64,000 nt of DNA from SAR324 cluster bacterium. Lineage in GTDB: Bacteria; SAR324; NAC60-12. The stretch covers positions 1,349-65,348 of the forward strand of contig JADGAT010000014.1 of NCBI GenBank assembly GCA_015231885.1, written 5' to 3'. Of this stretch, positions 1 through 15,491 are shown one piece after another (position 1 is the stretch's first letter; every line of letters begins with the position of its first letter). The translations under genes and the position numbers were made by a program. The notes under the pieces are model-generated. The model did not search any database. It was given only the letters and a program-made list of their open reading frames with translations, and had not been told where the DNA came from.

Positions 1-1283
1 GCCCCTCCCTTGATTTCATGGAGAAGCGCAAATTCATCATCCAGCATCACTTTTTTCAATTCAATGGTCAGAGTCCCTCCTTTCTCTGCCATAGCCTGGC
101 TAGCATTGGTACACAGATTCATAATCATTTGGTGGATTTGTGTGGGATCTGCCAGAATCCGATCTTCCTGAACTTCGATATTTTGGGAAATTTCAATGGT
201 TGTGGGTAAGGTTGCTCGCATCAATTTGAGTGCTTCTTTGACGAGGGGATGAATCTGTACGGGTTTGCGTTCACTTTCACTGCGACGACTGAAGGTTAGA
301 ATTTGCTGTACCAGATCTTTGGCTCTTCCGCCCGCCTTAAAAATTTGATCGACACTGTCGTGCATTAATTCATCAGCCACCAGATCTTCCCTCAGCATTT
401 CTGCATATCCCAGGATTGCAAAAAGGAGGTTGTTGAATTCATGCGCAATACCTCCCGCTAATATACCAATGGCTTCCATTTTTTGAGACTGATGCAATTG
501 TTTCTCCAATCGTTCCCGTTCTTTTTCCGCATGCTTTCGGCCGGTAACATCACGCAGAGTTCCAGTAAATAAATGCTGCTCATTTTTAATTATTTCTCCA
601 AAAGACGATTCTAGAAAAATTTCGGTACCGTTTTTATGCAAACCAATGAGTTCAATTCTCTTCCATGAATGTATTTGTTTGTTGGTCTTGAGATACTGTT
701 TCAAGGCTTCTGAATGCTTCAGTCTCGTGCTTTTTGGCATCAGCATCGTTATATTTTTCCCTATCAACTGTTTCAAAGAATGACCAAAGATTTGTTCTGT
801 AGCAGGGTTTGCAAACAAAATATTGTTTTTCTCGTCAATAGTGACAATCGCATCCGATACCGTTTCTGCAACCAAACGGTAATTTTCTTCACTTTCTTTT
901 AGCTTTTGTATGTACTCCTGAATGGCCAATGCCGAACTAATTCTGGCACGAAGCACCACTTCATCGAAAGGTTTGTTGATAAAATCAACAGCTCCGTTTT
1001 CAAAACATTTTTTCAACAACATGTTATTGGTGTCACCTGTTAGCATAATCACGGGAATCTTGCGGAAGACCGGATGTTCTTTTAGTTGTCTCAGAAGCAT
1101 GATCCCATCGATCTCGGGCATGTTAATATCCAATAAAATCAGATCAACCGATTCGCTTTTCAAAAATTGAAAAGTATAGGTAGCATACAATGTGGTTAAT
1201 GGAACATGTCCAAATGATTTAATGAGTACTTCCAATTGCTTGAGTACCTGCCCATCATCATCAATTACAAAAATATTTGCCAT
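1..1283 (-). CDS. Hybrid sensor histidine kinase, REC-PAS-HisKA-HATPase (partial, runs off window start)
   Basis: Not in the ORF track. Manual translation from ATG at 1283 gives MANIFVIDDDGQVLKQ...DLILLDINMPEIDG...PVIMLTG...DFINKPF (REC), then DAIVTIDEKNNILFANPATEQIFG (PAS), SQKMEAIGILAGGIAHEFNNLL (H-box) and DPTQIHQMIMNLCTNASQAM (N-box). Confidence 0.9.
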   Translation of the reverse strand, partial: MANIFVIDDDGQVLKQLEVLIKSFGHVPLTTLYATYTFQFLKSESVDLILLDINMPEIDGIMLLRQLKEHPVFRKIPVIMLTGDTNNMLLKKCFENGAVDFINKPFDEVVLRARISSALAIQEYIQKLKESEENYRLVAETVSDAIVTIDEKNNILFANPATEQIFGHSLKQLIGKNITMLMPKSTRLKHSEALKQYLKTNKQIHSWKRIELIGLHKNGTEIFLESSFGEIIKNEQHLFTGTLRDVTGRKHAEKERERLEKQLHQSQKMEAIGILAGGIAHEFNNLLFAILGYAEMLREDLVADELMHDSVDQIFKAGGRAKDLVQQILTFSRRSESERKPVQIHPLVKEALKLMRATLPTTIEISQNIEVQEDRILADPTQIHQMIMNLCTNASQAMAEKGGTLTIELKKVMLDDEFALLHEIKGG

Positions 1284-1321
1284 AACTGCCTTAGTTTCTG
1301 ATTGCTCTACTTCACTTTTAT

Positions 1322-2833
1322 TTAGTTTTTTTGTCTTAAATACTCATTCAACATGACCGTATGCGTGTTTTCCAGAGGAAGTAAACGACTAATAATCTCC
1401 GTTAAGAGTTTTGGATTGGCATATGCTTCCTGAATAGCCTGTACGCGCAATTGAAACTGCTGAACGGTCTCGATGAGTGTCGAATTTTCCAAATATTCTT
1501 GTTGCTGTATGGCATGCTGGCTCTCATCCAGTACGGCCATACTCATACGCAACAGATTTTCACTTTCAATTGTAAAAAACACTTTAGAAAAGGGCCGAAT
1601 GTATTCGATGGCTTTGTAAGGTTTTTGCGTAGGAAGGCTGTGATTCTTTCTGTAATAATCCTGAAATAATCTCGCAAAACCGTTTTGAAATTGCTGCAGT
1701 TTGGGAAGGTGCTTAGTGATGCCAAATAATTCACGGTGCTTGAATAACAAATCCAAAGCATTGATAAATTTTTCAAAACATTGCACCAGACGCCTGTTCG
1801 TAATCAATCCTTTACCAGATGCAGGGGTTTGCATGATACGAATGTACTCTCCCACGCTCTCTTCTATGTAATCACTAATATCATACAAACTCTGTTCCAC
1901 TCTCAATAGATTCTCAAAATGTTTTTCATCAAAAACCTCATACAGTCCTAATTCCATGTAGTGGATAGCCCTGTCTTTGCTGATATATTCACTAATTTTT
2001 TCTAAAAAAAGAAAAAATTCTTCCAACTCATCCAAGTCATGTATCAGCTGATAGTGAAACTTTTTAACCAATACTTTGCTCAGGTAGCCGCCATTGTACC
2101 ATTCAGCAAGCGCCTTGAATCTTTTAAGAATTGGCACTCCTTCATTCATTCCCCGTTCCAGTTCCATCTGAATGACATCATCCATATAATGCCCTCCCAG
2201 CAGTTGTATGATTTCTTGTGCCAAACGGTATTTTGGAACAACAATTTGAGTGATGATGTGGTTATTCTGTACTTGGTTATTTAAAATAAAATCCTGATCC
2301 TTTTTACAAAGCTCCAGATCATACTTGATTTGAATCTCAGCTTGTATTTGGTTTAAAACGGCCTGGAGTTCTTCTTCAGTGGCTCTTCGTTGCAATTTAT
2401 AAATTCCCTGATCAAACAGGCCGCTTTGTAAATATTTGCGGAAGTCTGCAGGCTCAAAAGATTGTTCCTTTGCCTGATTTACCAGTTCGATCAATTTTTG
2501 GTAAAGTTGAGTATGATTGAGGAGTTTGCGATGATACTTGTCAAATAAATCATCATCAAAATGACCTGATTGTTTCAGGTGAGTCAAGTCGCTCATACGT
2601 GTCAACCCCTTCATGCTGGATTGGAGGGATTGACGGAGTAACTGGGTGATTGTTCTTTTAGACAGAGGTGTGTTGATGATGCTCAAAATCTTTGCGCCAA
2701 TTTCATACTTGCGCTCTATTTTTTTTTGAAGGGCCTCTAATTCACTGGAGGGAGTGGTGTGCAGCGCTTCTTGATCAGGAATACTTAGTGGAAAATGATA
2801 TGTGTTTTCTATGTAATCTGTGAAATTTTTCAT
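1322..2833 (-). CDS. Hypothetical 503-aa soluble, probably all-alpha-helical protein
   Basis: Long ORF, co-oriented and closely spaced (58 and 38 nt gaps) with its neighbours; no motif recognised. Confidence 0.75.
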   Translation of the reverse strand: MKNFTDYIENTYHFPLSIPDQEALHTTPSSELEALQKKIERKYEIGAKILSIINTPLSKRTITQLLRQSLQSSMKGLTRMSDLTHLKQSGHFDDDLFDKYHRKLLNHTQLYQKLIELVNQAKEQSFEPADFRKYLQSGLFDQGIYKLQRRATEEELQAVLNQIQAEIQIKYDLELCKKDQDFILNNQVQNNHIITQIVVPKYRLAQEIIQLLGGHYMDDVIQMELERGMNEGVPILKRFKALAEWYNGGYLSKVLVKKFHYQLIHDLDELEEFFLFLEKISEYISKDRAIHYMELGLYEVFDEKHFENLLRVEQSLYDISDYIEESVGEYIRIMQTPASGKGLITNRRLVQCFEKFINALDLLFKHRELFGITKHLPKLQQFQNGFARLFQDYYRKNHSLPTQKPYKAIEYIRPFSKVFFTIESENLLRMSMAVLDESQHAIQQQEYLENSTLIETVQQFQLRVQAIQEAYANPKLLTEIISRLLPLENTHTVMLNEYLRQKN

Positions 2834-2891
2834 AATATTTCACATCAAAATTATAAAACATTCCAAGTAAGCATTCATCCTGGTCCGGCAT

Positions 2892-5651
2892 TTATGGATT
2901 TGCCATTTTTTCTTCATTTGCATAGTTTTTGTCTCCATGGGCACTAAAAACGGCATCCTTGAATTGCCAGGATAAGGTCTTTTCCCGGCTCTGTTCGTCC
3001 AAAGCCAGGGAATGCCCAGATGCCATGCTATTGTACCAAAAATCCGTTTTGAGCTGCTTATTGCCCATATTCACAGCATTGTTGCTTAAAAACCGGTCTA
3101 TGCTTTTATACAAGTGAGGGTGCTGCAATAAGGGGTGGTGGTGATCATAAAAATCCTGAGCATGTAACATCAACTCAGGATGATCAAACTCATCAACATA
3201 CCACCTTTGCAAATTATCACGATACAGAATGGACAGTCTGCCGAACTTAAATAAATGTAAAAAAAAATAAATTTCTGTCACTTCTCTTGTGAGTTTAACT
3301 CCATCCATGTAGTGAGAGTACCGATATGGAAAAAAACTAACAATGCGGTCAGCAAGGCGAACCAGTACCTCTGCATCAATAATACTCCAGATGTTATCTA
3401 CTATATTTCCCAGGTCACTGGCGCCCAAGTCGATTTGAAACTTTGTTTTGCTTTCTGACAAAGAACCAGTACGAACCAATCCATAGTAACCATTCAAAAT
3501 GCAATAAGCCAGCCCTTTTAAAAAGCTCATTTCATAAATCAAAACAGTATCTTGAGAAACTGAAGAGGTTGCTGTATCAGTGGGTATACCCACAGTTTTT
3601 TCCTCAGTCAAGCCGCTGAAAACCCAGTTTCCCCGCCGCCTACTTTTCTCATATCGTATCACAATACGAGCTCTGGGGACTTTCAAGTGAGATAAAAAAT
3701 TTCTTGGAATTTCATTGGGATCATAATCAAAATTTTGTTGGTAAAAATGATACCAGATTTCAAATTCAGACTGATTGCTAGTGTCAGGAATATTGCTCTG
3801 TGCCATAATGCGGTGAATGCGATCCAGACAATTAGAAAAGAGATTTTTTAAATCATGTTCAAAATGGTTGATTGCCTGGACTTCTCCTATGAAAATCTGC
3901 TTGACTGTCAAATACTGCGAACTATTGGGGGGAAACGCCATATCTAGAAAAGATTTCAAAAAGCGTTCACGGTAGCTGCGGCAGTTCACCAGAGCAAATC
4001 CATCAGCAAGATTCACGTGTAAAGCAAAGCATAAATCAATATTACGGGAAATGCTTCGACGTTCTGATGAATCCAGTTGGATGGAAGGATCACTGTAATA
4101 AATTTTTAGAACTTTATATTTCAACCACCAGGGATCCATCAATAACAAAGGAATTTTTTCCTCCAGGGTAAGTATTTGCTGGACAGAAAGTCCATATCGG
4201 TGCTTACTGTCATTTTCCTGTTCTTTTGCAATTTCTTTATAATTCTTAGGAATCAGATGGTGGAGGGCCTCTGGTGATTTGACAATTTCTATCAACGTCA
4301 GCAAGTACTTTGAATGATAGAGAACCTCTATGCGGAATAAGTTCAGTAAGGCTTTGGGCAGGTTACCAGAAGCGGCTTTAAATGATTCCCAATAGGCAGC
4401 ACCAATATGGCTCAGCATGTAGGACATTTTTAATGAAGGGGTGGGGCCCATGTCAACCAAATAGTCATCTATGCGAAAATACAAAGGCAAGCAGTGAAAC
4501 CTAAGAAAATTAACGGTTCTTTTATAGAAAGCGGTAGAATTATTGAATACACTGGAAAAAATAAAGTGGGTGGGAATTGTTGGAGCAAACTGAATCCCAG
4601 GCATTAAAACTTCATAATTTAAGATCAATTCATAGGCAGACCCCGACGCCTCTTTTGATTCCAGCGTCGTGCCATGCTGCCCATTTTGAAATGATTCACA
4701 ATCACATGAAAACAGATAGACTTCGGCATGAGGAAATTTAGTCTGTACATAGTCCTGAATTGCTAAAATGCGTTGTTTGAGTAAACTTTCTTTTCGCTCT
4801 ATTTCTTCTGCATGAGCCGTTTTATAGGATTTTGTGATCAACTCCATCATCTCTAAAATGACGCTCATTTTGAATTGCGCACCATGAGTAGAGGCCAAGG
4901 CTCCGGATATGTCTTTATGTTTGAACAGTATTTGATACAGGTAAGGATAGGCTTTGCCAATATGAAGGGTTGCTTGTTGACGCAATTCTTTATAAATCTC
5001 AGAAGTCTTAGAAATTTCGCCTGGATCTAGCTTTTTTCGAAGGCAGAGACGAAGAAACCATGAATGGATTTCCTCTGATAACGCATCTCTCAAATGATCA
5101 CTGTCCCATTCATCAAGATTGAACTTAAATGGCTGCAGTGTGTATAAAATCTGAAGATCTAGATCCGATTTACCGGGCTTATGGCCAATGGTGCCAATTG
5201 AGCCCAATGAAGAAATACTGACGATGGGGCAAAAGTCCGAGATCATTTCTTTGGTAGGTTTTAATCCAAACTCGGCTGTCACATATTGATAGAAATCTTG
5301 ACGAAAGGCTTGTGGCAACTTATCAATTCCGGCAACTCCATGCAGAGTATCAGGCGCATATAAATTTGCGGTTGCCCGGTATTCGGTTTCTCGAATGATC
5401 CCGCTGACTCGTTCTACTTTGGTTGCCCGGTATTCTAGCTTTTCAAACTGAGGATCGTTGACATGTAAAAAATAGATAACTTCATACAAAGCTTTTTTCA
5501 TGTCTTCAGTAAAGACAGAAAAAGCTATCTTCATACGGGATTCATTGAAATGATTGAAAAACTTTTTTCCCTCTGTTAAGGCGTTTTCCAACTCTTTTGC
5601 ATTTTTTTCAGGTAAAGCAATCCCTGATTTAAATAATTTATTCAACCCCAT
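2892..5651 (-). CDS. Class I adenylate cyclase-like nucleotidyltransferase (Pol-beta fold), divergent
   Basis: SSLGSIGTIGH..KSDLDLQ (GS...DxD motif), GSAYELILNYE, YWESFKAASGNLPKALL and DPWWLKY resemble CyaA class I blocks. ATG at 5651 is the likely start; the ORF is open to a TTG at 5726. Confidence 0.7.
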   Translation of the reverse strand: MGLNKLFKSGIALPEKNAKELENALTEGKKFFNHFNESRMKIAFSVFTEDMKKALYEVIYFLHVNDPQFEKLEYRATKVERVSGIIRETEYRATANLYAPDTLHGVAGIDKLPQAFRQDFYQYVTAEFGLKPTKEMISDFCPIVSISSLGSIGTIGHKPGKSDLDLQILYTLQPFKFNLDEWDSDHLRDALSEEIHSWFLRLCLRKKLDPGEISKTSEIYKELRQQATLHIGKAYPYLYQILFKHKDISGALASTHGAQFKMSVILEMMELITKSYKTAHAEEIERKESLLKQRILAIQDYVQTKFPHAEVYLFSCDCESFQNGQHGTTLESKEASGSAYELILNYEVLMPGIQFAPTIPTHFIFSSVFNNSTAFYKRTVNFLRFHCLPLYFRIDDYLVDMGPTPSLKMSYMLSHIGAAYWESFKAASGNLPKALLNLFRIEVLYHSKYLLTLIEIVKSPEALHHLIPKNYKEIAKEQENDSKHRYGLSVQQILTLEEKIPLLLMDPWWLKYKVLKIYYSDPSIQLDSSERRSISRNIDLCFALHVNLADGFALVNCRSYRERFLKSFLDMAFPPNSSQYLTVKQIFIGEVQAINHFEHDLKNLFSNCLDRIHRIMAQSNIPDTSNQSEFEIWYHFYQQNFDYDPNEIPRNFLSHLKVPRARIVIRYEKSRRRGNWVFSGLTEEKTVGIPTDTATSSVSQDTVLIYEMSFLKGLAYCILNGYYGLVRTGSLSESKTKFQIDLGASDLGNIVDNIWSIIDAEVLVRLADRIVSFFPYRYSHYMDGVKLTREVTEIYFFLHLFKFGRLSILYRDNLQRWYVDEFDHPELMLHAQDFYDHHHPLLQHPHLYKSIDRFLSNNAVNMGNKQLKTDFWYNSMASGHSLALDEQSREKTLSWQFKDAVFSAHGDKNYANEEKMANP

Positions 5652-5771
5652 ACGTGTAATGAGAAAAAGGAAGGAACATTTGCAGAGCGGGGAGTCTTCT
5701 CCTCCTTGGTCTGCCGAACGAAACAAACCAAGGAAAAGTTATGGCAATAATCCGACCGTTTGACAAGCTAT

Positions 5772-6515
5772 TTAAATGTCTTGATCGGCCTTACTGTCTC
5801 GTCTTTGATTCCATTGAATCCATTCATTTTGAACAGACTTTAGATGAAAAGGTTGTGGAGGGCCAGGCTTTTGGTCCTTTGATACAGAGATTGTGTAAAA
5901 AGCGGAAACAATCACTTGCCAATTTTCCCTGGAAACCTCATGAGGCGGAGCAATTTCTCTGGGGGCATAATTACTGGTTTGCGCTGCCTGATTATTGTCA
6001 CTAACGGCAACCTCTCCAGTAAAAACGCGAACCTGTGTATTGTCCTCAGAAACGGTTGCTTCATAAGAGGTCCCATGTATATTTATTTTTGCATGGGCTG
6101 TTCGTAAAATTAATTTTGCCTGACGGCTTAAATTTTTCCGAAACTTTGCCCAGGCTTTTCCTAAAATCAACTGTAAATCAATCTGTCCTGTCCCCATATT
6201 GGTCTGGCGATTGATTCTCATGTGAGTATTGGGAGCAACCCTCACTTCACTACCCTCGCCTAACTTCATGGTCATACGGGTGTGAGGAAATGTTTTGATT
6301 TCATACTCAGGCAAAAGCTCCTGCCCCACTTCTAATGATTCCCAATCCGCATAATTCGAGGTTCGGTATTGAGCTTGATTTTCCAAATGAGTGACTACGA
6401 TTACCTCTGACTGGCTGGCTGCATACAAAAGATTAGAACCCATCAGCACAAAAAGTATCAGCAGGAGTACTCGGAGTTGCGCTAATCTTTTCCAGTTCCA
6501 ACTAATTTTCCACAT
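5772..6515 (-). CDS. FecR-domain exported/periplasmic protein
   Basis: N-terminal hydrophobic signal; motifs GSEVRVAPNT, LILGKAWAK, LRTAHAKINIHGTSY, VRVFTGEVAV. ATG 6515 has an AAGGAAGG SD (track start 6554). Confidence 0.8.
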   Translation of the reverse strand: MWKISWNWKRLAQLRVLLLILFVLMGSNLLYAASQSEVIVVTHLENQAQYRTSNYADWESLEVGQELLPEYEIKTFPHTRMTMKLGEGSEVRVAPNTHMRINRQTNMGTGQIDLQLILGKAWAKFRKNLSRQAKLILRTAHAKINIHGTSYEATVSEDNTQVRVFTGEVAVSDNNQAAQTSNYAPREIAPPHEVSRENWQVIVSAFYTISVSKDQKPGPPQPFHLKSVQNEWIQWNQRRDSKADQDI

Positions 6516-6579
6516 AAAATCCTTCCTTTGAGGAGATGGTTCGATACCATTCAAATGAGCAGTGAATCTCTTGGTTCAT

Positions 6580-6595
6580 TGTCTGGTAACAGACA
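6580..6595. promoter_or_regulatory. Palindrome TGTCT-N6-AGACA (CRP/FNR-like geometry)
   Basis: TGTCTGGTAACAGACA, with 6-bp perfect arms, in the divergent fecR/argC intergenic region. Confidence 0.3.
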
Positions 6596-6691
6596 TCATA
6601 TATAGGATGCACTCTGTACACAGAATGTTCAATTATTGAGTAATTAAATTATGAGTCGAATCTATTATGGAATGAGAAACGGCTTGTACTT

Positions 6692-6700
6692 TTATCCACA
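6692..6700 (+). promoter_or_regulatory. Perfect DnaA box TTATCCACA
   Basis: Exact consensus 9-mer in an intergenic region; could be chance. Confidence 0.3.
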
Positions 6701-6762
6701 AACTATGATCATCTTGCAAGTATTTACTTTGAAAACACACTTCATTTTTAAGGACAGACAGC

Positions 6763-7791
6763 ATGATTCGTGTTGCAATTATAGGTGCCGCAGGCCTTTC
6801 TGGTTTGGAATTAATTCACTGGTTACGCTCTCACCCCCAGATTGAATTAAGCATACTGACCTCAAGCAAATATGCAGGTCAAACATTAGAAGAAGTTTTT
6901 CCCAAGTATACCGGGATGTCACAATCATTCGAAAAGCATGACGCCAATTTAGACCATTGTGATGCTGCATTTTTGGCAATCCCTAATAAAGCCAGCCTTG
7001 ATCTGGTTCCAGCACTTCTGGAAAAAAAAATTCGAGTGGTTGATTTATCAGGAGTGTACCGTCTGAACAATACCTCCATTTTTGAAAAGTATTACGGTTT
7101 GACACACACTTCTCCGAATTTATTAGAAACCGCTGTTTTTGGTTTGCCAGAATACTTCAAAGATCAAATTTGCGAAGCAAACTTGATTGCAAATCCTGGA
7201 TGCTATCCAACCGGGGCTTTACTGGGCATGCTTCCTTTTGGTAATTTACTGGAAAATTTGAGTACGGCCCCCATCCTTGATGCAAAATCTGGAGTCAGTG
7301 GCGCTGGAGGCAGAGTAGAAGATGATACTACCAATTATGTGACCGTAAACGAAAATTTTAAAGCATATAAGATATTCAATCATCAACATACTCCAGAAAT
7401 TGAACAATATCTCGCAGAATTGACAGGGTACAGTATGCCTCAGCATGGCAGCCTTACATTCACTCCGCATTTGCTTCCATTGAACCGGGGGATTTTGACG
7501 ACTATTTATCTCCGTTTCCATGACGCTCTCCCTGTAGAGCATGTGAGACAATCTTTTGAAGACACTGCACAGAGCAATCCCTTCATGCATGTATTGCCAC
7601 AAGGACACTTTCCGGATTTAGCCATGGTCCAGAATACCAACTATTGCCGTATTGGTATTGCCCACGATGATTCCAGAAAAAATTGGATTGTTGTGACGAC
7701 CATTGATAACTTAGTCAAAGGCGCAGCAGGGCAGGCAATTCAAAACATGAACCTGATGTTTGGTCTGGATGAGAGTACAGGATTGATTTAG
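6763..7791 (+). CDS. argC: N-acetyl-gamma-glutamyl-phosphate reductase
   Basis: IRVAIIGAAG Rossmann motif, IANPGCYPT catalytic Cys, DAKSGVSGAG, IDNLVKGAAGQAIQNMN. Confidence 0.96.
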   Translation: MIRVAIIGAAGLSGLELIHWLRSHPQIELSILTSSKYAGQTLEEVFPKYTGMSQSFEKHDANLDHCDAAFLAIPNKASLDLVPALLEKKIRVVDLSGVYRLNNTSIFEKYYGLTHTSPNLLETAVFGLPEYFKDQICEANLIANPGCYPTGALLGMLPFGNLLENLSTAPILDAKSGVSGAGGRVEDDTTNYVTVNENFKAYKIFNHQHTPEIEQYLAELTGYSMPQHGSLTFTPHLLPLNRGILTTIYLRFHDALPVEHVRQSFEDTAQSNPFMHVLPQGHFPDLAMVQNTNYCRIGIAHDDSRKNWIVVTTIDNLVKGAAGQAIQNMNLMFGLDESTGLI

Positions 7792-7813
7792 AGACAAAGG
7801 GAATTAGACCATT

Positions 7814-8551
7814 GTGCCTGGAAATTTACTGCCAATTTTAATGTACCATCACATTGCAGAACCCCCTCGGGCTGTGAAAGTACGTGGATTGTATGTCACT
7901 CCAAAACAATTTGAATGGCAGATTCAGTGCCTGAAAGAAGCGGGCTTTGAATTCACTAATTTTCGTAAATTGACAAATCAAAATGGTGAGCAGTTCTCAA
8001 CCTCTTCTTCAAAACGTCAAATTATTCTAACATTTGATGACGGTTACCTGGATAATTATGAAAATGCTTTTCCCATTTTACGGCATTATGGAATTACTGC
8101 GGTAATCTATCCAGTGGTTGGTGCAATAGGCAAAAAAAAAGTCATTTGGAAAGAAAATGATGAGCAATATCCTGTTGACTTAATGACAAAAAATGCTATC
8201 CAGGAAATGCATCAGGCTGGTGTTGAATTTGGATCTCATCTTTATGATCACATGCACCTGGAACAACAAACCCAGGCAAGTATTCAGAATCAATTGTGTC
8301 GTTCAAAAGAAATTCTAGAAAACATTTTAGGAGAAGATGTTCTTTCGGTTGCGTATCCTTTTGGATCATATAGCAGTACCGTATTACAAGCAACCGCAGA
8401 GGCTGGATATCAGTACGGCCTGACCACTGTGTCTGGAATCAATACAGCCCAGCAGCCGCATTTGGAATTGAAAAGAACAGCGATTAAGGGGAATCGTTTG
8501 CATCATCGTTGGACGTTCATGAAACAGCTTCAACATGAGCTGTTGGCATAG
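7814..8551 (+). CDS. Polysaccharide deacetylase (CE4/NodB family)
   Basis: PILMYHHI, ILTFDDGY, FGSHLYDH, AYPFG motifs. Confidence 0.9.
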   Translation: MPGNLLPILMYHHIAEPPRAVKVRGLYVTPKQFEWQIQCLKEAGFEFTNFRKLTNQNGEQFSTSSSKRQIILTFDDGYLDNYENAFPILRHYGITAVIYPVVGAIGKKKVIWKENDEQYPVDLMTKNAIQEMHQAGVEFGSHLYDHMHLEQQTQASIQNQLCRSKEILENILGEDVLSVAYPFGSYSSTVLQATAEAGYQYGLTTVSGINTAQQPHLELKRTAIKGNRLHHRWTFMKQLQHELLA

Positions 8552-8572
8552 TGTTTCAGATTTATTTTGGAA

Positions 8573-9493
8573 TCAATAATCCACTTCTGAGCCTTCAAGG
8601 CGGCGGTCACGACCGGTCAGTGTTTCAAAATAACACATTTCTCGCAGACGAGAATAAATTCGCTCTCCCACTCGTCTACGCAAGGTATCGGCAGTAAATT
8701 TATCTTCTCCTGTTTTATCTTTAGTTAATAAACGTTCCTTGATAGTTGTTGATTCTCTTTCTGTGTAATTGGAAGTGACCATGATGGGCTTGTTGCTATT
8801 GTAGCGTTGGGAGATGAGAGTGTCTAAAACACTCAATTCCCATTCGGTGTTACGGCCCTTGCCCAAATCATCAATGATGAGTAATTCTGCTGCTAAGTGT
8901 GGTGCAATGATTTCCATTTCAGATTTTTGGGAAGAAAAACCATTTTTGATTTCAGACAACAGTTCGGAGAATCCTTGAAACATGCAGGACACCCCAAGGT
9001 TGATCGTACATTGATAAGCAAAGCCTGCCATCAGATACGTTTTGCCAGTCCCGGGTGAGCCCATCAAAACAAGTCCTTTTGAATCGATGGTTTGGCGACG
9101 TATTTCGGTAGGAGAAGGTGTTGATTTTTTATTTTTTGCATAATTTCGCACAATAGTCGTCAACAAGTTATAAACGCGTTGATTTTCTTTGTCACGATCG
9201 GAGCGAGGGAGTTTACTGGGTGCGTAATTATTGGGAACCCGTGCATTGTTATACAATTTAATATTGCGTTTCCGCACTTCACACTCTGGGCATGGCATGG
9301 CAATATCACGCCCCTGACTATCTTGCTCCAGCTTAAAACGGGCACCATGGCACACTCCACAAGGGACGGGAAAACATGAGCAAAGAGCTGCCTGAGCGTA
9401 TGCACCGGACATGGCTTCAATTACGATGTAAGTATCATCGCAATAGCGGCATTTTTGTGACGGTACTTTTTTTATTTTTGTACTCATTGTCAT
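8573..9493 (-). CDS. DnaC/IstB-like AAA+ ATPase with Cys-rich zinc-binding N-terminus
   Basis: Walker A GSPGTGKT, Walker B LLIIDDLG, 'RYNSNKPIMVTSN' and 'GERIYSRLREMC'; N-terminal CRYC, CSC, CGVC and CPEC. Confidence 0.85.
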   Translation of the reverse strand: MTMSTKIKKVPSQKCRYCDDTYIVIEAMSGAYAQAALCSCFPVPCGVCHGARFKLEQDSQGRDIAMPCPECEVRKRNIKLYNNARVPNNYAPSKLPRSDRDKENQRVYNLLTTIVRNYAKNKKSTPSPTEIRRQTIDSKGLVLMGSPGTGKTYLMAGFAYQCTINLGVSCMFQGFSELLSEIKNGFSSQKSEMEIIAPHLAAELLIIDDLGKGRNTEWELSVLDTLISQRYNSNKPIMVTSNYTERESTTIKERLLTKDKTGEDKFTADTLRRRVGERIYSRLREMCYFETLTGRDRRLEGSEVDY

Positions 9494-9530
9494 ATTTTTT
9501 AATTTTGACCATAACTAAAGGGAAACATCC

Positions 9531-10615: not shown

Positions 10616-11524
10616 TTACGAAGATATAATGTCGTCTATATCCTCAATCCACTCATCTATTTTTTCAATAGCATGGGTCCGCTGTTCTGGTGTTAAAATC
10701 TGATCAATCGATAACATCATTCGTTTGACGGCTTCTTTCTGTTTTTCAATCATTTGCTGATAATGCGGAGGGTAGGACTGATCCACATCTAAAAACCAAG
10801 CCGCCAGTTGCGTTTCAATTGCTTTGGCGCTACTCCCAGACCGCAAGAGTTCAAGGAATTCTTTTTGGCGTATTTTTCGGATTTTGATCCGTTCTGTGAA
10901 TGTTTCAGGTAATTGACGGCTTAGTTGAGAGATTTTTTCTTGTTGATTAGCAGAAAGCTGACCAAACCAATCTTCCGAAAATTCCAATGTCCTATCCACA
11001 CGCCTTTGTCTCCGTTCTTCCTGTGGAAGCTTAACTCGCTCCAAGGCCGACTCGTTGAACTCCATGAGCTGTGTCTCAAAAAATTCAATCTGCTCTTGCG
11101 TTAAACCTGCCAAAAAAACAGATGTATCGGTGAGCAGTCGTTGGACTAGATTTTTGCGGAGATACTCTATCTTCGTAAAACACCATTCTATTTCTTCAGG
11201 CTCCAGTCCATCCTGTCCTTTTTGCTTAAATTCTTTCAAAAGTACAGAATATTTATGCAGTTCATTTTGTTTATGCCAAGTTAGATGCCGTTGAACCTTC
11301 TCTTCTAAGAGTGTTTTTTGCTCAGCACTCAAGTCAAAATAATCATCAACCGCCCACAAAGCAATCCAATCGGCATACTGATAAGCTATTTTTAGTGTGC
11401 AGCCAGTCAAAAGCAATACACTAAAAAAAACAACCCACCATCTTCTTGGAATGATGATTGTGCGAATAGGTAGAAGCTCAAACCATAATATTGGGATTTT
11501 GTCTGCCAATTTTTTCCAAGGCAT
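10616..11524 (-). CDS. DUF6279-family lipoprotein (start uncertain)
   Basis: Lipobox LLTGC followed by TLKIAYQYADWIALWAVDDYFDL, and C-terminal ILTPEQRTHA. Confidence 0.7.
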   Translation of the reverse strand: MPWKKLADKIPILWFELLPIRTIIIPRRWWVVFFSVLLLTGCTLKIAYQYADWIALWAVDDYFDLSAEQKTLLEEKVQRHLTWHKQNELHKYSVLLKEFKQKGQDGLEPEEIEWCFTKIEYLRKNLVQRLLTDTSVFLAGLTQEQIEFFETQLMEFNESALERVKLPQEERRQRRVDRTLEFSEDWFGQLSANQQEKISQLSRQLPETFTERIKIRKIRQKEFLELLRSGSSAKAIETQLAAWFLDVDQSYPPHYQQMIEKQKEAVKRMMLSIDQILTPEQRTHAIEKIDEWIEDIDDIISS

Positions 11525-13232
11525 ATTGTAATACATACTCATCTTCAATTTCAACTTTCATGATTTCCAGGCCATATTCCCAAAGTTTTTGCTGATCGGA
11601 AGTTTTATGCTCACGGGCCCAGCGAATTTGGCAAACTGTGTCTAACGTATTGACCTGTAGATATTTTTGGATCGGAGTGTCGCCCACTTTTATTGCTAAT
11701 TTGACCATTTGTCCAATTGGTAATTCGTTGGAAGACTCAAGTTTCAGTCCTGTTGCTGAAATATCTTGTACAGTCCCAGTCAAGTGTTGCCAAAGATTAT
11801 CTTCTTGTTCAACGGAAATAGGAGAAACATCAGAAGTGGTTACAAACATATAACGGTTTGAACGTCTGGAAAGAATATAATCCATCAAGCCTTCTATTTC
11901 TTTGATCACATTATCCCAATAAGGATTATTAGCAGGCAGAGGATATTTTTGAAAATACTGGCATCGTTTGATGTAGCTCAAAGACACTCCATCTTCTGGC
12001 AGAATCTGCAGACATTGGATGAATTGATCCAGTGCGCCTTTGAAGTTCCGTTCATTGTAAAATTGGATTCCTCTGGAAAGAGACGGCTGAATATCCTGTT
12101 TTTTTTGTTTCAACTCCTGTGGATCGCTATCAAAAACTTCATAAATCACGACCGGTTCTGATCTCCCGCGGACTTTCACAACATCTACTTCGCGGATATC
12201 GTATTGATCGGGAGTGAGAGCTGCGTAAGTATGGTGAGAAATTAAAATATCCACTTGAAAACGTTTGGTAAGTCCTTCCAGGCGTGAAGACAAATTCACA
12301 TGATCCCCAATGACTGTGGATGTTACCCGACTGGGGGTGCCCAGGGTTCCTACCATTACGGGTCCTGTATCAATGCCTATTCCCAGATGAATTGCAGGCA
12401 GCTCCTGTTGTCTGCGCCCCTTATTATAGGAATTGAGAAGTGTTTGTATATCAATTGCTGCCTGGACAACATGGTCTGCTGATTGTTTACCGTCAAACAA
12501 TGCCATGATGGCATCCCCAATAAATTTATCAATGAAACCATGATTGTTCCTGATGGCAGGTTCCAAGTGAGTAAACAATTGATTGAGAAAATCGAAATTT
12601 TCCTGGGGTGACATTTTTTCTACGTGAGTGGTGTAAGAACGGATATCTGCAAAAAGAATAGAAAGAGGTTCTTCTTTACCCACCCCGACCTGAAAAGAAT
12701 CCGACTGCCAAGATAATATTTTTTGCAGAAATTGTTCAGGAACAAACCGCTTAAAATCTTGATTTAGCTGTTCGAGTTTGGAATATGAATCATTCAAGTG
12801 TTCATTGGCATCCCGTAATTCCAGAGTTCTCTCCTCTACTCTTTTTTCAAGTGCATCTTTTGCATCTTTTGCGGTAAGTGCTGTTTTCACGCGAGCTTTT
12901 AAAATCAGCTCACTGATAGGCTTTGTGATAAAATCAACTGCGCCAAGTTCAAAGCATTTTGCCAACAGCTGGTCACTGGTTTCACCCGTTAGCATGATCA
13001 CGGGCACTTTAGAATAATCAGGATGAGCCTTGAGTTGCTTCAATAGCATAATACCATCGGTTCCCGGCATATTGACATCCATTAAAAATAGATCAAATGT
13101 CTCGACTTTCAACTTGGGAAATAAAAACTCCGGCTTTGTGATAAAACCAGACACATAGCCTTGGGTACTGAGCAATGCTCTCACTTGTTGTACTACTTGT
13201 GGGTCATCATCAATAATTAATAGCTTTGCCAT
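11478..13232 (-). CDS. Response-regulator class III adenylate cyclase with TPR-like segment and C-terminal PilZ domain
   Basis: REC (IIDDD, MDVNMP, KP); cyclase ILFADIRSYT, DKFIGDAIMALF, TVIGDHVNLSSRLE; PilZ motifs RRSNR and DISATG. Confidence 0.88.
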   Translation of the reverse strand: MAKLLIIDDDPQVVQQVRALLSTQGYVSGFITKPEFLFPKLKVETFDLFLMDVNMPGTDGIMLLKQLKAHPDYSKVPVIMLTGETSDQLLAKCFELGAVDFITKPISELILKARVKTALTAKDAKDALEKRVEERTLELRDANEHLNDSYSKLEQLNQDFKRFVPEQFLQKILSWQSDSFQVGVGKEEPLSILFADIRSYTTHVEKMSPQENFDFLNQLFTHLEPAIRNNHGFIDKFIGDAIMALFDGKQSADHVVQAAIDIQTLLNSYNKGRRQQELPAIHLGIGIDTGPVMVGTLGTPSRVTSTVIGDHVNLSSRLEGLTKRFQVDILISHHTYAALTPDQYDIREVDVVKVRGRSEPVVIYEVFDSDPQELKQKKQDIQPSLSRGIQFYNERNFKGALDQFIQCLQILPEDGVSLSYIKRCQYFQKYPLPANNPYWDNVIKEIEGLMDYILSRRSNRYMFVTTSDVSPISVEQEDNLWQHLTGTVQDISATGLKLESSNELPIGQMVKLAIKVGDTPIQKYLQVNTLDTVCQIRWAREHKTSDQQKLWEYGLEIMKVEIEDEYVLQYALEKIGRQNPNIMV

Positions 13233-13413
13233 AACAAACCCATTGTGTTAAAAAATTCAATTTTATGAAAGCGCATTTTCTGTTTGGAAGCAATCATATT
13301 TTATCATCTTTTCAATTTTCTCTTCATCTCCTGCATAAGCTACTGCTTCAATTTTATTTTATAGCAAAGAAAAGAAAAAATTTCTTCATTATGTTTTTTC
13401 TATCAAAAAATTA

Positions 13414-13442
13414 TTGACAATTCTCGTATTTTGTTTTTAAAT
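13414..13442 (+). promoter_or_regulatory. Candidate sigma70 promoter for the small ORF at 13510
   Basis: Perfect -35 TTGACA (13414-13419), 17-nt spacer, weak -10 TTAAAT (13437-13442). Confidence 0.45.
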
Positions 13443-13468
13443 AGCACCATATTAGTGCTATTTAAAAA
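13434..13468. promoter_or_regulatory. Perfect 14-bp inverted repeat operator with NtrC/Fis-family-like core
   Basis: TTTTTAAATAGCAC-catatta-GTGCTATTTAAAAA; the core AGCACCATATTAGTGCT resembles the NtrC consensus TGCACCA-N3-TGGTGCA. Confidence 0.6.
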
Positions 13469-13509
13469 CGAATGAAATCAGCTTGAGTCCTATTTAAAAA
13501 GGAGGTTTT

Positions 13510-13695
13510 ATGAGGAAAGCAGTTGCTGGCCCTCCAATTACGAGAGGAGTGATTGAAACGGCTATCAGAAGTTACGTTGCTAAAGGTGGGAAAATCACTA
13601 TGCTGCCACCTCAATCTGTTACAACCAGGACAGTAATTGGGGGAGATATGTGGGCGGCCTATGAGAGTGCAGACTCTTGCTTGTTTATTTCGTGA
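13510..13695 (+). CDS. 61-aa small protein, SutA RNAP-binding-domain-like
   Basis: Strong SD (AAAAGGAGGT) 4 nt before ATG; IETAIRSYVAKGGKITMLPP resembles the 'AxxxFLxxGGxIxxLP' motif. Confidence 0.7.
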   Translation: MRKAVAGPPITRGVIETAIRSYVAKGGKITMLPPQSVTTRTVIGGDMWAAYESADSCLFIS

Positions 13696-13759
13696 TCACA
13701 CCCTCCAGGTGGAAGACTGCATCGGCACACTGTTCTTAAAAAGAGCGTCCTTCCGTAAT

Positions 13760-13782
13760 GCATCAGGGGCATTAGCTGATGC
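13760..13782. terminator. Hairpin between convergent genes (possible terminator)
   Basis: GCATCAG-gggcattag-CTGATGC, a 7-bp stem with only a weak U tract. Confidence 0.35.
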
Positions 13783-13797
13783 GGTTTCCATGCAGCT

Positions 13798-14142
13798 TTA
13801 TACATCATTAAAGCTATTCAATGCGGCTTCCTCTGTGGAGTAAAATGGGATCATCCGATCCAAACCAGCCATCTGTAATATTTGAAAAATGCTCGCCTCT
13901 GCCTCACATACAACCAGTTGAACCCTCTGTTTTTCAAATTCTCGAAACAGAAATATGATGATTCCAATTCCAGTAGAATCAATGAAGGACACCTTGCCAA
14001 GATGGAGAACAACCCCTTTAAGCATATCATATTTGAGTAATGACTGAGAATATACTTTTACCTTTGAAACGGTATGATGTACCAGTTTTCCTTGAATAGA
14101 CACGGTGCAGATATTATTTTCAACAAGATGCTCCAATTCCAT
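13798..14142 (-). CDS. STAS-domain anti-sigma factor antagonist
   Basis: VVLHLGKVSFIDSTGIG (phosphorylatable Ser motif), ILQMAGLD; 114 aa. Confidence 0.9.
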   Translation of the reverse strand: MELEHLVENNICTVSIQGKLVHHTVSKVKVYSQSLLKYDMLKGVVLHLGKVSFIDSTGIGIIIFLFREFEKQRVQLVVCEAEASIFQILQMAGLDRMIPFYSTEEAALNSFNDV

Positions 14143-14363
14143 GTTTTTCCTTTTTAGTCAGTTTATATTTTTTGTTGCAGCTTTCGCAATTCTATGGAAA
14201 ATCAGTGAGTATTAAGTAGAAAGAAAGACCATGAGTAACATCTTTTAAACGAGAATTTTCTGGAAGTTTCTAATAGGAATATACACTTGAGATTGATTAT
14301 TAGCAATGATATCTCACTTTTTTTTCTGTTCACAGTTTCACACAAGACGCATATCAAGAAAAT

Positions 14364-15491
14364 ATGAAAGAAGGATTCCAGTTTAGAGACGTATTCAATG
14401 CCACAGTCGTTCAGGATCTGGCAGAACAAATTCACAAAACATGGCCTGAATTTGCAAAAAATGATTTTACAGACTCCATTACAGCACGATTGGAGCAATT
14501 TAGTTTTGGAGGCCGCAATCAATTGATTGCAGAACAGTTAAAAGTCTATCTACCCGATGATTTTCCCAAAGCAGCAGAAATTTTGGTTCGCTCATTGGGG
14601 CCAGAACTGCCGCAAAAGGAATTAACAGGGTTTGATGGTTTTATGATCATGCCCCAATGTAAGTTCATCAGCCAAAATGGATTGGAGTACTTTGACATTT
14701 CCATCAACGCTCTCTATGAAATGACAAAACGCTTTTCTGCAGAAGGAGACATTCGCCTGTTTATCAAGAAATACCCTGAAAAAACAATGAAGCTGCTGCA
14801 TCAATGGACAAACGATGCTAACTGCCATGTCCGGCGTTTGGTTTCAGAAGGCACGCGCCCCCGATTACCACTATACTCTCCATTGCCTCAGTTTAAAAAA
14901 GACCCAGTGCCTGTCATTGAGCTGCTGGAAAAATTAAAGCAGGATCCTGAATTGTATGTTAGACGCTCTGTTGCCAACAATCTCAATGACATTGCCAAAG
15001 ACAACCCCCATATTGTGGTAGAAACATTAAAGGCATGGTCTACCATTCAGGAGGAAGGAACCCATTGGATAATACGCCATGCTTCCAGATCACTTGTTAA
15101 ATATGGAAATAAAGAGATGTTGTCCCTGCTTGGCTATCCCGGCAACCCAAAAATCTCTGTCCATCACCTCCATATACACCACCCAACCATCAAAATTGGG
15201 GAAACACTGCAGTTCGATCTGGAAATACAATCCAGCGTAAAAAAAATGCAAAATTTAATGATTGATTATGCAATTCATTTTGTGAAAGCAAATGGCAAGC
15301 AAGTCCCTAAAGTTTTTAAGCTGGCCAAAAAAAAGATTAATAATTGCGAATCTCTAAAAATTTCTAAAAAACATTCTTTTAAACCAATCAGTACCAGAAA
15401 GTATTATCCTGGAGAGCATTTTCTGGAAATTATAATCAATGGAGACTCTTTGGGAACAACTACTTTTTTTCTGAAAGAACCCGTAAAATGA
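14364..15491 (+). CDS. DNA alkylation repair protein (HEAT-repeat, COG4335-like) with C-terminal beta domain
   Basis: MTKRFSAEGDIRLF, HVRRLVSEGTRPRLP, YVRRSVANNLNDIAKD, RKYYPGEH. Confidence 0.85.
   Translation: MKEGFQFRDVFNATVVQDLAEQIHKTWPEFAKNDFTDSITARLEQFSFGGRNQLIAEQLKVYLPDDFPKAAEILVRSLGPELPQKELTGFDGFMIMPQCKFISQNGLEYFDISINALYEMTKRFSAEGDIRLFIKKYPEKTMKLLHQWTNDANCHVRRLVSEGTRPRLPLYSPLPQFKKDPVPVIELLEKLKQDPELYVRRSVANNLNDIAKDNPHIVVETLKAWSTIQEEGTHWIIRHASRSLVKYGNKEMLSLLGYPGNPKISVHHLHIHHPTIKIGETLQFDLEIQSSVKKMQNLMIDYAIHFVKANGKQVPKVFKLAKKKINNCESLKISKKHSFKPISTRKYYPGEHFLEIIINGDSLGTTTFFLKEPVK

Follow-up and report, generated by a model that had tools for sequence, protein, structure and literature searches.

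Introduction

To our knowledge, class I adenylate cyclases are known almost only from CyaA, the single cyclase, regulated by the phosphotransferase system (PTS), of the enterobacteria and their relatives. Five Pfam domains (PF12633, PF26690, PF26693, PF26691, and PF01295) make up E. coli CyaA and its relatives, for which NCBIfam has the PRK09450 models, and the E. coli cyaA gene sits between hemC and cyaY. Here we describe a locus of the SAR324 phylum in which a diverged relative of these enzymes, a putative nucleotide cyclase that we call NT, is followed on the same strand by the gene for U503, an orphan protein of 503 amino acids (aa). The locus lies within the first 6,515 positions of a 64,000-nt stretch of the genome of a SAR324 cluster bacterium, from a deep-branching group of marine and groundwater habitats (GenBank assembly GCA_015231885.1, contig JADGAT010000014.1, positions 1,349 to 65,348), and we refer to that whole stretch as the window.

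Two other kinds of system invite comparison. FecR-domain proteins that are secreted can share an operon with a membrane sensor kinase, such as a CHASE2 kinase (PMC5192318), and others are paired with membrane cyclases; a secreted protein with this domain is encoded directly upstream of NT. The CD-NTases of the cyclic-oligonucleotide-based anti-phage signaling systems (CBASS) belong, as NT appears to, to the Pol-beta nucleotidyltransferase superfamily, and in both cases a nucleotide-making enzyme (a putative one in ours) is followed by a second gene.

A sequence-only reading of this DNA had proposed that four co-oriented minus-strand genes, encoding the FecR protein, NT, U503, and a hybrid histidine kinase, in that order, constitute a dedicated second-messenger module. 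The four genes are where that reading had placed them, with the 58- and 38-nt gaps that it reported between the last three, and its FecR and NT domain calls hold, as does, for E. coli, its remark that enterobacterial cyaA has no such partners. The module itself survives in part: the linkage of NT and U503 stands, and nucleotide signaling is plausible through a related clade of NT, but as a set of four the genes are not conserved. The value of the locus thus lies in the NT family and in the NT-U503 pair, and not in the operon as first proposed.

NT and U503 form a conserved gene pair

There are approximately 11 known U503 loci in total, and we recovered the genomic context of all 11. NT is encoded immediately upstream of U503 (window positions 2892..5651 and 1322..2833, both on the minus strand) in 10 of them: WIN, L001, L002, L005, L006, L077, L080, L081, L082, and L083. 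Here, WIN stands for the window locus, L001 to L083 for related loci from other metagenome-assembled genomes (MAGs), and L079 for a longer contig that carries the window locus. The contigs of L081 and L082 hold the C-terminus of NT only. The pair is kept down to 46-49% identity in NT and 34-36% identity in U503, while both of its flanks change. Where the spacing between the two genes could be measured (seven loci), it is 58, 200, -4, 30, -8, -8, and 26 nts; that is, start and stop overlap by 4-8 nts in three of seven pairs, coming from three lineages. NT-U503 is the only robust unit at the locus, and it is a genuine, novel-looking gene pair.

We consider it moderately probable, from sequence comparison, that the functional core of the locus is this two-gene unit, with NT being a cyclase and U503 its partner, and with FecR and the kinase being looser neighbors. 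U503 would be produced from the same transcript as NT, often by translational coupling. We infer contact between the two proteins, with U503 most likely being a regulatory subunit that binds NT and is particular to this lineage, or else acting as the first receiver of the NT product.

U503 is a rare orphan protein

U503 (59.5 kDa, pI 6.2) is predicted to be a soluble, all-alpha protein. Its AlphaFold2 (AF2) model has a mean predicted local distance difference test (pLDDT) score of 75 and about 25 helices, and the sequence has no transmembrane segment (maximum 19-residue mean hydropathy 0.77). It belongs to no Pfam, NCBIfam, or PADLOC family, and neither a whole-chain Foldseek search nor a sequence-profile search of the PDB found a match. 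Comparing U503 using hhalign with NT, with CyaA, and with 13 families of genes that neighbor NT in its other contexts gave no relationship either.

The protein is also rare. We found 7 clusters in a collection of 5.8 billion, 4 full-length representatives in one of 1.84 billion, and presence in 4 of 185,579 species genomes; a scan of the JGI metagenomes added no further loci. Among 10 members, whose identity to the window protein goes down to 34%, 59 positions are invariant. U503 would represent a protein family not described before.

Two candidate relatives deserve mention. A gene of 491-501 aa found downstream of NT in one of the other NT clades (clade e, below) was considered as a distant U503, and ruled out because it is YjeF, an NAD(P)HX repair enzyme. 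Outside the window, the repeat unit of a giant multi-PAS chemoreceptor-like protein (P0132, 2084 aa) weakly matches the U503 profile at 64-152 (E-value 6.5e-5, 8 stretches), and this is probably compositional or repeat noise.

The superfamily of NT, which the sequence-only reading had noted to include the CD-NTases, raises the question of whether the locus could be a CBASS or CD-NTase-like anti-phage system with U503 as its effector. Beyond the fact that CD-NTases are Pol-beta nucleotidyltransferases, nothing here favors it, and we regard it as extremely improbable. None of FecR, NT, and U503 matches a PADLOC family at E ≤ 0.1. U503 lacks an effector domain, be it a nuclease, a lipase, a transmembrane domain, or another kind. 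The window neighbors are housekeeping genes (argC, a hemE-type URO-D, and GMP synthase), with a synteny to L005 that reaches into them, as opposed to a defense island. Finally, the NT family is vertically inherited, with multiple core-genome paralogs.

NT is a distant relative of the class I cyclases

The mechanically called open reading frame (ORF) of NT spans 2892-5726 and opens at a TTG. We place the true start at the ATG at 5651, resulting in a protein of 919 aa, because the homologs have 911-933 aa and the L001 ortholog has no upstream in-frame start. The NT has no hydrophobic segments (the top 19-residue mean hydropathy, found in the L005 ortholog, is 1.17), which points to a cytosolic enzyme.

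The Pfam model Adenyl_cycl_N (PF12633) matches the window NT with 36.2 bits, over a gathering score of 27, and it is above the gathering score in all 33 members of the family that we tested (best E-value 4.3e-10). The NCBIfam class I adenylate cyclase model NF006981 assigns to the window NT 47.6 bits versus a cutoff of 802 (about 6% of it), and it matches 29 of the 33 members, all of them far under the cutoff. No other curated families are matched significantly: class I adenylate cyclase models are the only ones. By these comparisons, NT is a distant relative of the class I cyclases and not an equivalog.

An alignment of the 33 sequences, which includes members down to 36% identity with the window protein, has as invariant positions G148, S149, G151, T152, K156, S160, D161, L162, D163, and E308. 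The Pol-beta motif GS...SDLD is retained in all members tested, and both hhalign and HMMER align it with E. coli CyaA 102-GSTSSVGQSCSSDLDIW-118 (G102-S103...D114-L115-D116). When the SAR324 NT profile is compared using hhalign with E. coli CyaA alone or with a 9-sequence enterobacterial profile, what aligns is the catalytic motif only (E-values 0.01-0.02); this enterobacterial profile is shallow, as the homolog search gave relatives at ≥84% identity only. In the AF2 model of NT (pLDDT 84, predicted TM-score 0.82), strands 141-146 and 162-168 flank the GS, and strand 309-315 has E308 at its head. This order of secondary structure around the motif is compatible with a Pol-beta fold. The description of NT as a class-I-cyclase-like Pol-beta nucleotidyltransferase, which the sequence-only reading had given, is supported, with an intact catalytic motif and a distant relationship.

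A PDB sequence-profile search with the NT alignment found no match, and no solved class I cyclase structure turned up. Foldseek places HIV reverse transcriptase at the top for the NT model (E-values 0.3-2.6), and we took these matches as noise. In the literature on SAR324 cyclases, on PF12633, and on class I cyclase structure and function, we found no directly relevant work.

In comparison with enterobacterial CyaA, NT has the same kind of N-terminal domain with the GS...SDLD in the equivalent place, a similar size (919 vs. 848 aa), a presumed cytosolic location, and a large C-terminal non-catalytic half. It differs in the residue aligned to W118 and in the other four domains (see below), in belonging to the SAR324 phylum and not to the Gammaproteobacteria, and in being present in two to three or more paralogs per genome, each with a conserved context. 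Moreover, the NT lineage of the window has in U503 a dedicated partner gene, unlike cyaA.

The NT family in SAR324

The best database matches of NT are all annotated as "hypothetical proteins", and their MAGs are assigned to SAR324 or Lambdaproteobacteria or are unclassified. Scanning 185,579 species-representative genomes using two peptide patterns only, we found 73 NT loci, all in SAR324- or Lambdaproteobacteria-type MAGs, with 2-3 copies detected in many single MAGs. The ORFs called at every locus were grouped into clusters, and the resulting neighborhoods were mapped onto a neighbor-joining (NJ) tree of NT. The tree divides into clades, each with its own gene context: FecR-NT-U503 (clade a, that of the window); a kinase with the domains cNMP_binding-PAS-HisKA-HATPase immediately upstream of NT (clade b); trpB-trpA-NT / rnhA (clade c); adk-NT-mnmG (clade d); RlmL / NT-YjeF ... 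frr (clade e); TPR-CHAT-NT (clade f); and MBL-ChaC / NT (clade g). The NT family, to which the window contributes one lineage, thus extends across the phylum and has 7 or more types of context.

The narrow clade a has clade d as its sister, and MAGs with a clade-a copy also hold a clade-d copy (L001/L066, L002/L008, and L005/L007). The clade-a NT is probably a recent duplicate of the paralog in the adk-NT-mnmG housekeeping context, and one that gained U503.

Clade b is informative about the product. All 10 of the upstream kinases that we tested have the architecture cNMP_binding-PAS-HisKA-HATPase_c. Their domain for binding cyclic nucleoside monophosphates (cNMP) has E-values from 1e-13 to 1e-17, and its phosphate-binding cassette is intact (GEMxLI...RSATV). 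Kinase and NT are on the same strand, with ORF-based gaps of -68 to 55 nts. This pairing suggests a module that connects a cNMP to a two-component system. With a cNMP-binding sensor kinase ahead of NT in every case, clade b supports, indirectly, that the NT family makes a cNMP, and it is the strongest argument that we have for it. The window itself holds neither a cNMP-binding domain nor a second NT copy.

If the NT family is taken as a whole, a wider scenario can be proposed, which we hold only tentatively: that an as yet undescribed branch of class-I-type cyclases radiated in SAR324 into specialized modules, one of them signaling directly to cNMP-binding kinases, and that the clade-a NT is an obligate heteromer with U503, which would control its activity or its product, possibly not cAMP. 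A phylum-wide, multi-paralog, strongly diverged branch, in which one lineage is coupled to cNMP-binding sensor kinases and another to an orphan partner of its own, would broaden our view of how class I cyclases are regulated. For the SAR324 group, which is abundant but uncultured, it would moreover provide a cAMP-type signaling network that can be put to the test.

Other observations in these neighborhoods are the following. The clade-b loci are L009-L016, L047, L059, L071, and L073 (for example, L073 6080-7861), and their NT is often preceded also by two small genes without a Pfam family (C33 and C47). In L056-L058 (for example, L056 4332-7793), from Lambdaproteobacteria-type MAGs, there is a longer NT paralog of 1050-1079 aa; ahead of it are encoded a TPR-CHAT protein (about 1150 aa) and a 249-aa protein without a known domain.

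How well is the two-gene reading supported?

We have proposed that NT is a cyclase and U503 its partner. In this proposal, NT would be a cytosolic, catalytically competent nucleotidyltransferase of Pol-beta fold whose product is most likely a 3',5'-cyclic nucleotide, by default taken to be cAMP. Several observations count against one or the other half of the proposal.

With respect to NT, the similarity to E. coli CyaA is limited to the N-terminal domain: PF26690, PF26693, PF26691, and PF01295 are not found in any of the 33 SAR324 NTs at E ≤ 0.01, and E. coli CyaA reaches no more than about 1 bit against the SAR324 NT profile. Residue Q165, invariant in the family, aligns to W118 of E. coli CyaA, a tryptophan that reportedly is essential. 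The whole-chain Foldseek search of the NT model versus the PDB gave nothing better than an E-value of 0.3, so that it is the sequence models and the motif that support the assigned fold. The evidence from the cNMP-binding kinases comes from the paralogous clade b and not from clade a. With respect to U503, locus L078 includes a homolog (P0130, 35% identity, at 8001-9521) without an NT, located between an FGE-sulfatase-like gene and trkH. And the clade-a NTs have no clade-specific signatures that could serve for docking U503 other than a 2-residue insertion and a 4-column deletion.

Alternatively, NT might not be a cyclase but some other Pol-beta nucleotidyltransferase, for instance one that transfers nucleotides to protein or RNA in the manner of GlnE/GlnD, with U503 as its substrate or specificity factor. 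The match confined to the N-terminal domain, a score so far from the equivalog cutoff, and the glutamine in place of W118 go in that direction. In addition, three NT members weakly match a poly(A)-polymerase palm-domain model (MTPAP), and several paralogs adjoin genes related to RNA or translation (mnmG, RlmL, frr, and rnhA). We find this unlikely nonetheless, because the significant curated matches, in 33/33 and 29/33 members for the two models, are to class I adenylate cyclases only, and because the coupling of clade b to kinases with intact cNMP-binding cassettes would make little sense if no cNMP were made by the family. The cyclase activity of NT, and a cNMP as its product, remain for us the better supposition.

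A further question is whether U503 could be just an unrelated neighbor, kept through shared ancestry, with NT acting alone like its paralogs. All U503 loci come from a single narrow NT clade, and NT paralogs of similar length do without such a partner; the lone U503 homolog and the scarcity of clade-a signatures fit as well. We consider this very unlikely, since the pair persists to large divergence in both proteins despite changing flanks, since the start/stop overlaps have appeared in three lineages, and since the invariant U503 positions argue for purifying selection. For these reasons we retain the reading of U503 as a partner of NT.

FecR is a separable neighbor

The gene upstream of NT (5772..6515, minus strand; start at ATG 6515 with AGGAAGG just ahead) encodes a 247-aa protein with a FecR domain (PF04773, E-value 2.5e-12). 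In all 5 orthologs, the N-terminus is a hydrophobic stretch with an AxA-type site at its end (LYA/AS, LQA/AS, VNA/AS, ARG/AE), and in all 5 the FecR domain comes directly after this signal peptide, about 40 residues on. We take FecR to be an exported protein with a cleavable signal peptide and with neither a transmembrane nor a cytoplasmic part. A role as a transmembrane anti-sigma factor was considered and rejected, as there is no N-terminal cytoplasmic anti-sigma domain. No extracytoplasmic function (ECF) sigma factor, TonB receptor, or membrane sensor is found within 10 kb on either side, and all other products of the locus are predicted to be cytosolic. The best NCBIfam similarities of FecR are to Leptospira Lsa33 and LipL45.

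FecR precedes NT in 5 of the 8 loci that can be read there (WIN, L001, L002, L005, and L077), and it is absent from L006, L080, and L083. WIN and L005 also share the argC flank further upstream, so the conservation of FecR is partly plain synteny; the flanks of L002 and L077 differ. FecR is then a frequent but separable neighbor of NT. In L077, FecR is itself preceded by a 546-aa secreted protein without a family.

The window FecR resembles other secreted FecR-domain proteins (COG4254, LipL45/Lsa33-like) in being exported by a signal peptide and encoded beside signaling genes. On the other hand, the Burkholderia operon of a response regulator, a LysM-FecR protein, and a CHASE2 kinase (PMC5192318) provides the FecR protein with a CHASE2 kinase, while the window locus encodes no CHASE2 or membrane-spanning partner. 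The enzyme that adjoins the window FecR, NT, is cytosolic, unlike in the FecR-kinase operons.

The 120-nt spacer between FecR and NT includes an element (5741..5767, minus strand) located just past the FecR stop. The window form is CTTGTCAA-N12-TTGCCAT, and the general form is CTTGTCAA-N(10-12)-TTGnCAT. Across the four genomes WIN, L001, L002, and L005, no change is seen in the blocks CTTGTCAA and ATTGnCAT, while the remaining spacer diverges. The pattern has a single match in the 64-kb window versus 0.01 expected, and it also matches in L002, L005, and L079. It can be read as a -35 TTGTCA, 17 nts, and a TGn-extended -10 CATAAC, and we interpret it as a candidate promoter or operator, separate from that of FecR, for NT-U503 and perhaps for the kinase. 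A sigma-54 reading of the motif was ruled out because the GG is not conserved in L001. An Rfam scan of positions 1-8000, in which a riboswitch was sought in the 120-nt spacer, gave no match.

The downstream kinase and the four-gene operon

The gene downstream of U503 (3..1283, minus strand, ATG at 1283) runs off the start of the window, which holds the 5' part, 427 of 639 codons. On these 427 aa, Pfam identifies Response_reg (REC), PAS, HisKA, and the start of HATPase_c. The complete kinase of 639 aa, found in L079 at 11551-13470 (GCA_002753255.1, PDZZ01000006.1), is REC-PAS-HisKA-HATPase_c-REC.

A kinase follows U503 in only 3 of the 10 NT-U503 loci (WIN, L001, and L077), and the REC-PAS type is restricted to WIN and its closest relative L001, the NTs of which are 84% identical. 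The L077 kinase is an unrelated 934-aa protein with Hpt and HATPase_c domains, and the genes after it encode a SpoIIE-type phosphatase and a small REC protein (L077 9683-14622). There is no kinase downstream of U503 in L002, L005, L006, L080, L081, L082, and L083. The window kinase has no cNMP-binding domain. Like the clade-b kinases, it is a PAS-HisKA-HATPase kinase adjacent to the same enzyme family on the same strand; unlike them, it is downstream, has REC domains in place of the cNMP-binding domain, and is only 21% identical. That it could be a domain swap of a clade-b kinase, REC for cNMP, was considered and ruled out, as 21% identity is generic likeness. The window kinase is a generic hybrid kinase and a genome-specific addition.

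These results bear on the proposal that the four genes are one dedicated second-messenger operon, in which FecR would sense the outside, NT would make the messenger, U503 would regulate or execute, and the kinase would be the output. The genes are co-oriented, with spacers of 120 nts between FecR and NT, 58 nts between NT and U503 (2834-2891), and 38 nts between U503 and the kinase (1284-1321), and none of the minus-strand spacers has a terminator-like hairpin. The short gaps and the absence of such hairpins are compatible with co-transcription, and only that. The complete order recurs in L001, and the distant L077 has FecR-NT-U503-kinase, in which one junction is a gap of 4 nts and another an overlap (-8), before the phosphatase and REC genes. 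Secreted FecR-domain proteins are, as we have mentioned, established partners of sensor kinases.

However, the neighborhood comparison finds the full set with the same kinase type in WIN and L001 only. The kinase is missing from seven loci and FecR from three, and the two kinase types that do occur are unrelated to each other. The window kinase lacks a domain with which to bind the nucleotide, which also removes the support for the kinase as output. FecR is exported, but the locus encodes no membrane partner for it, and neither NT nor U503 has hydrophobic segments. Moreover, the conserved promoter-like motif separates FecR from NT. We therefore judge a dedicated four-gene operon to be quite unlikely. 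With NT-U503 as the core, the hybrid kinase would probably still be co-transcribed in the window, and it would more plausibly give phosphorelay input or share regulation with the pair than read the nucleotide.

Other features near the locus

Past the start of the window, the L079 contig has after the kinase stop about 1.4 kb (13471-14882) with short ORFs only (≤81 aa) and no terminator-like hairpin. Within the window, an IstB/DnaC-like AAA ATPase of 306 aa (8576-9493, minus strand) lies between polysaccharide deacetylase and URO-D genes, with no IstA transposase gene adjoining. About 5 kb from the locus, at 11481-13232 on the minus strand, there is a 584-aa protein in which REC is combined with a class III cyclase domain (Guanylate_cyc) and, at the C-terminus, with PilZ. 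Such an unusual fusion could connect a phosphorelay, the synthesis of cAMP or cGMP, and the binding of c-di-GMP.

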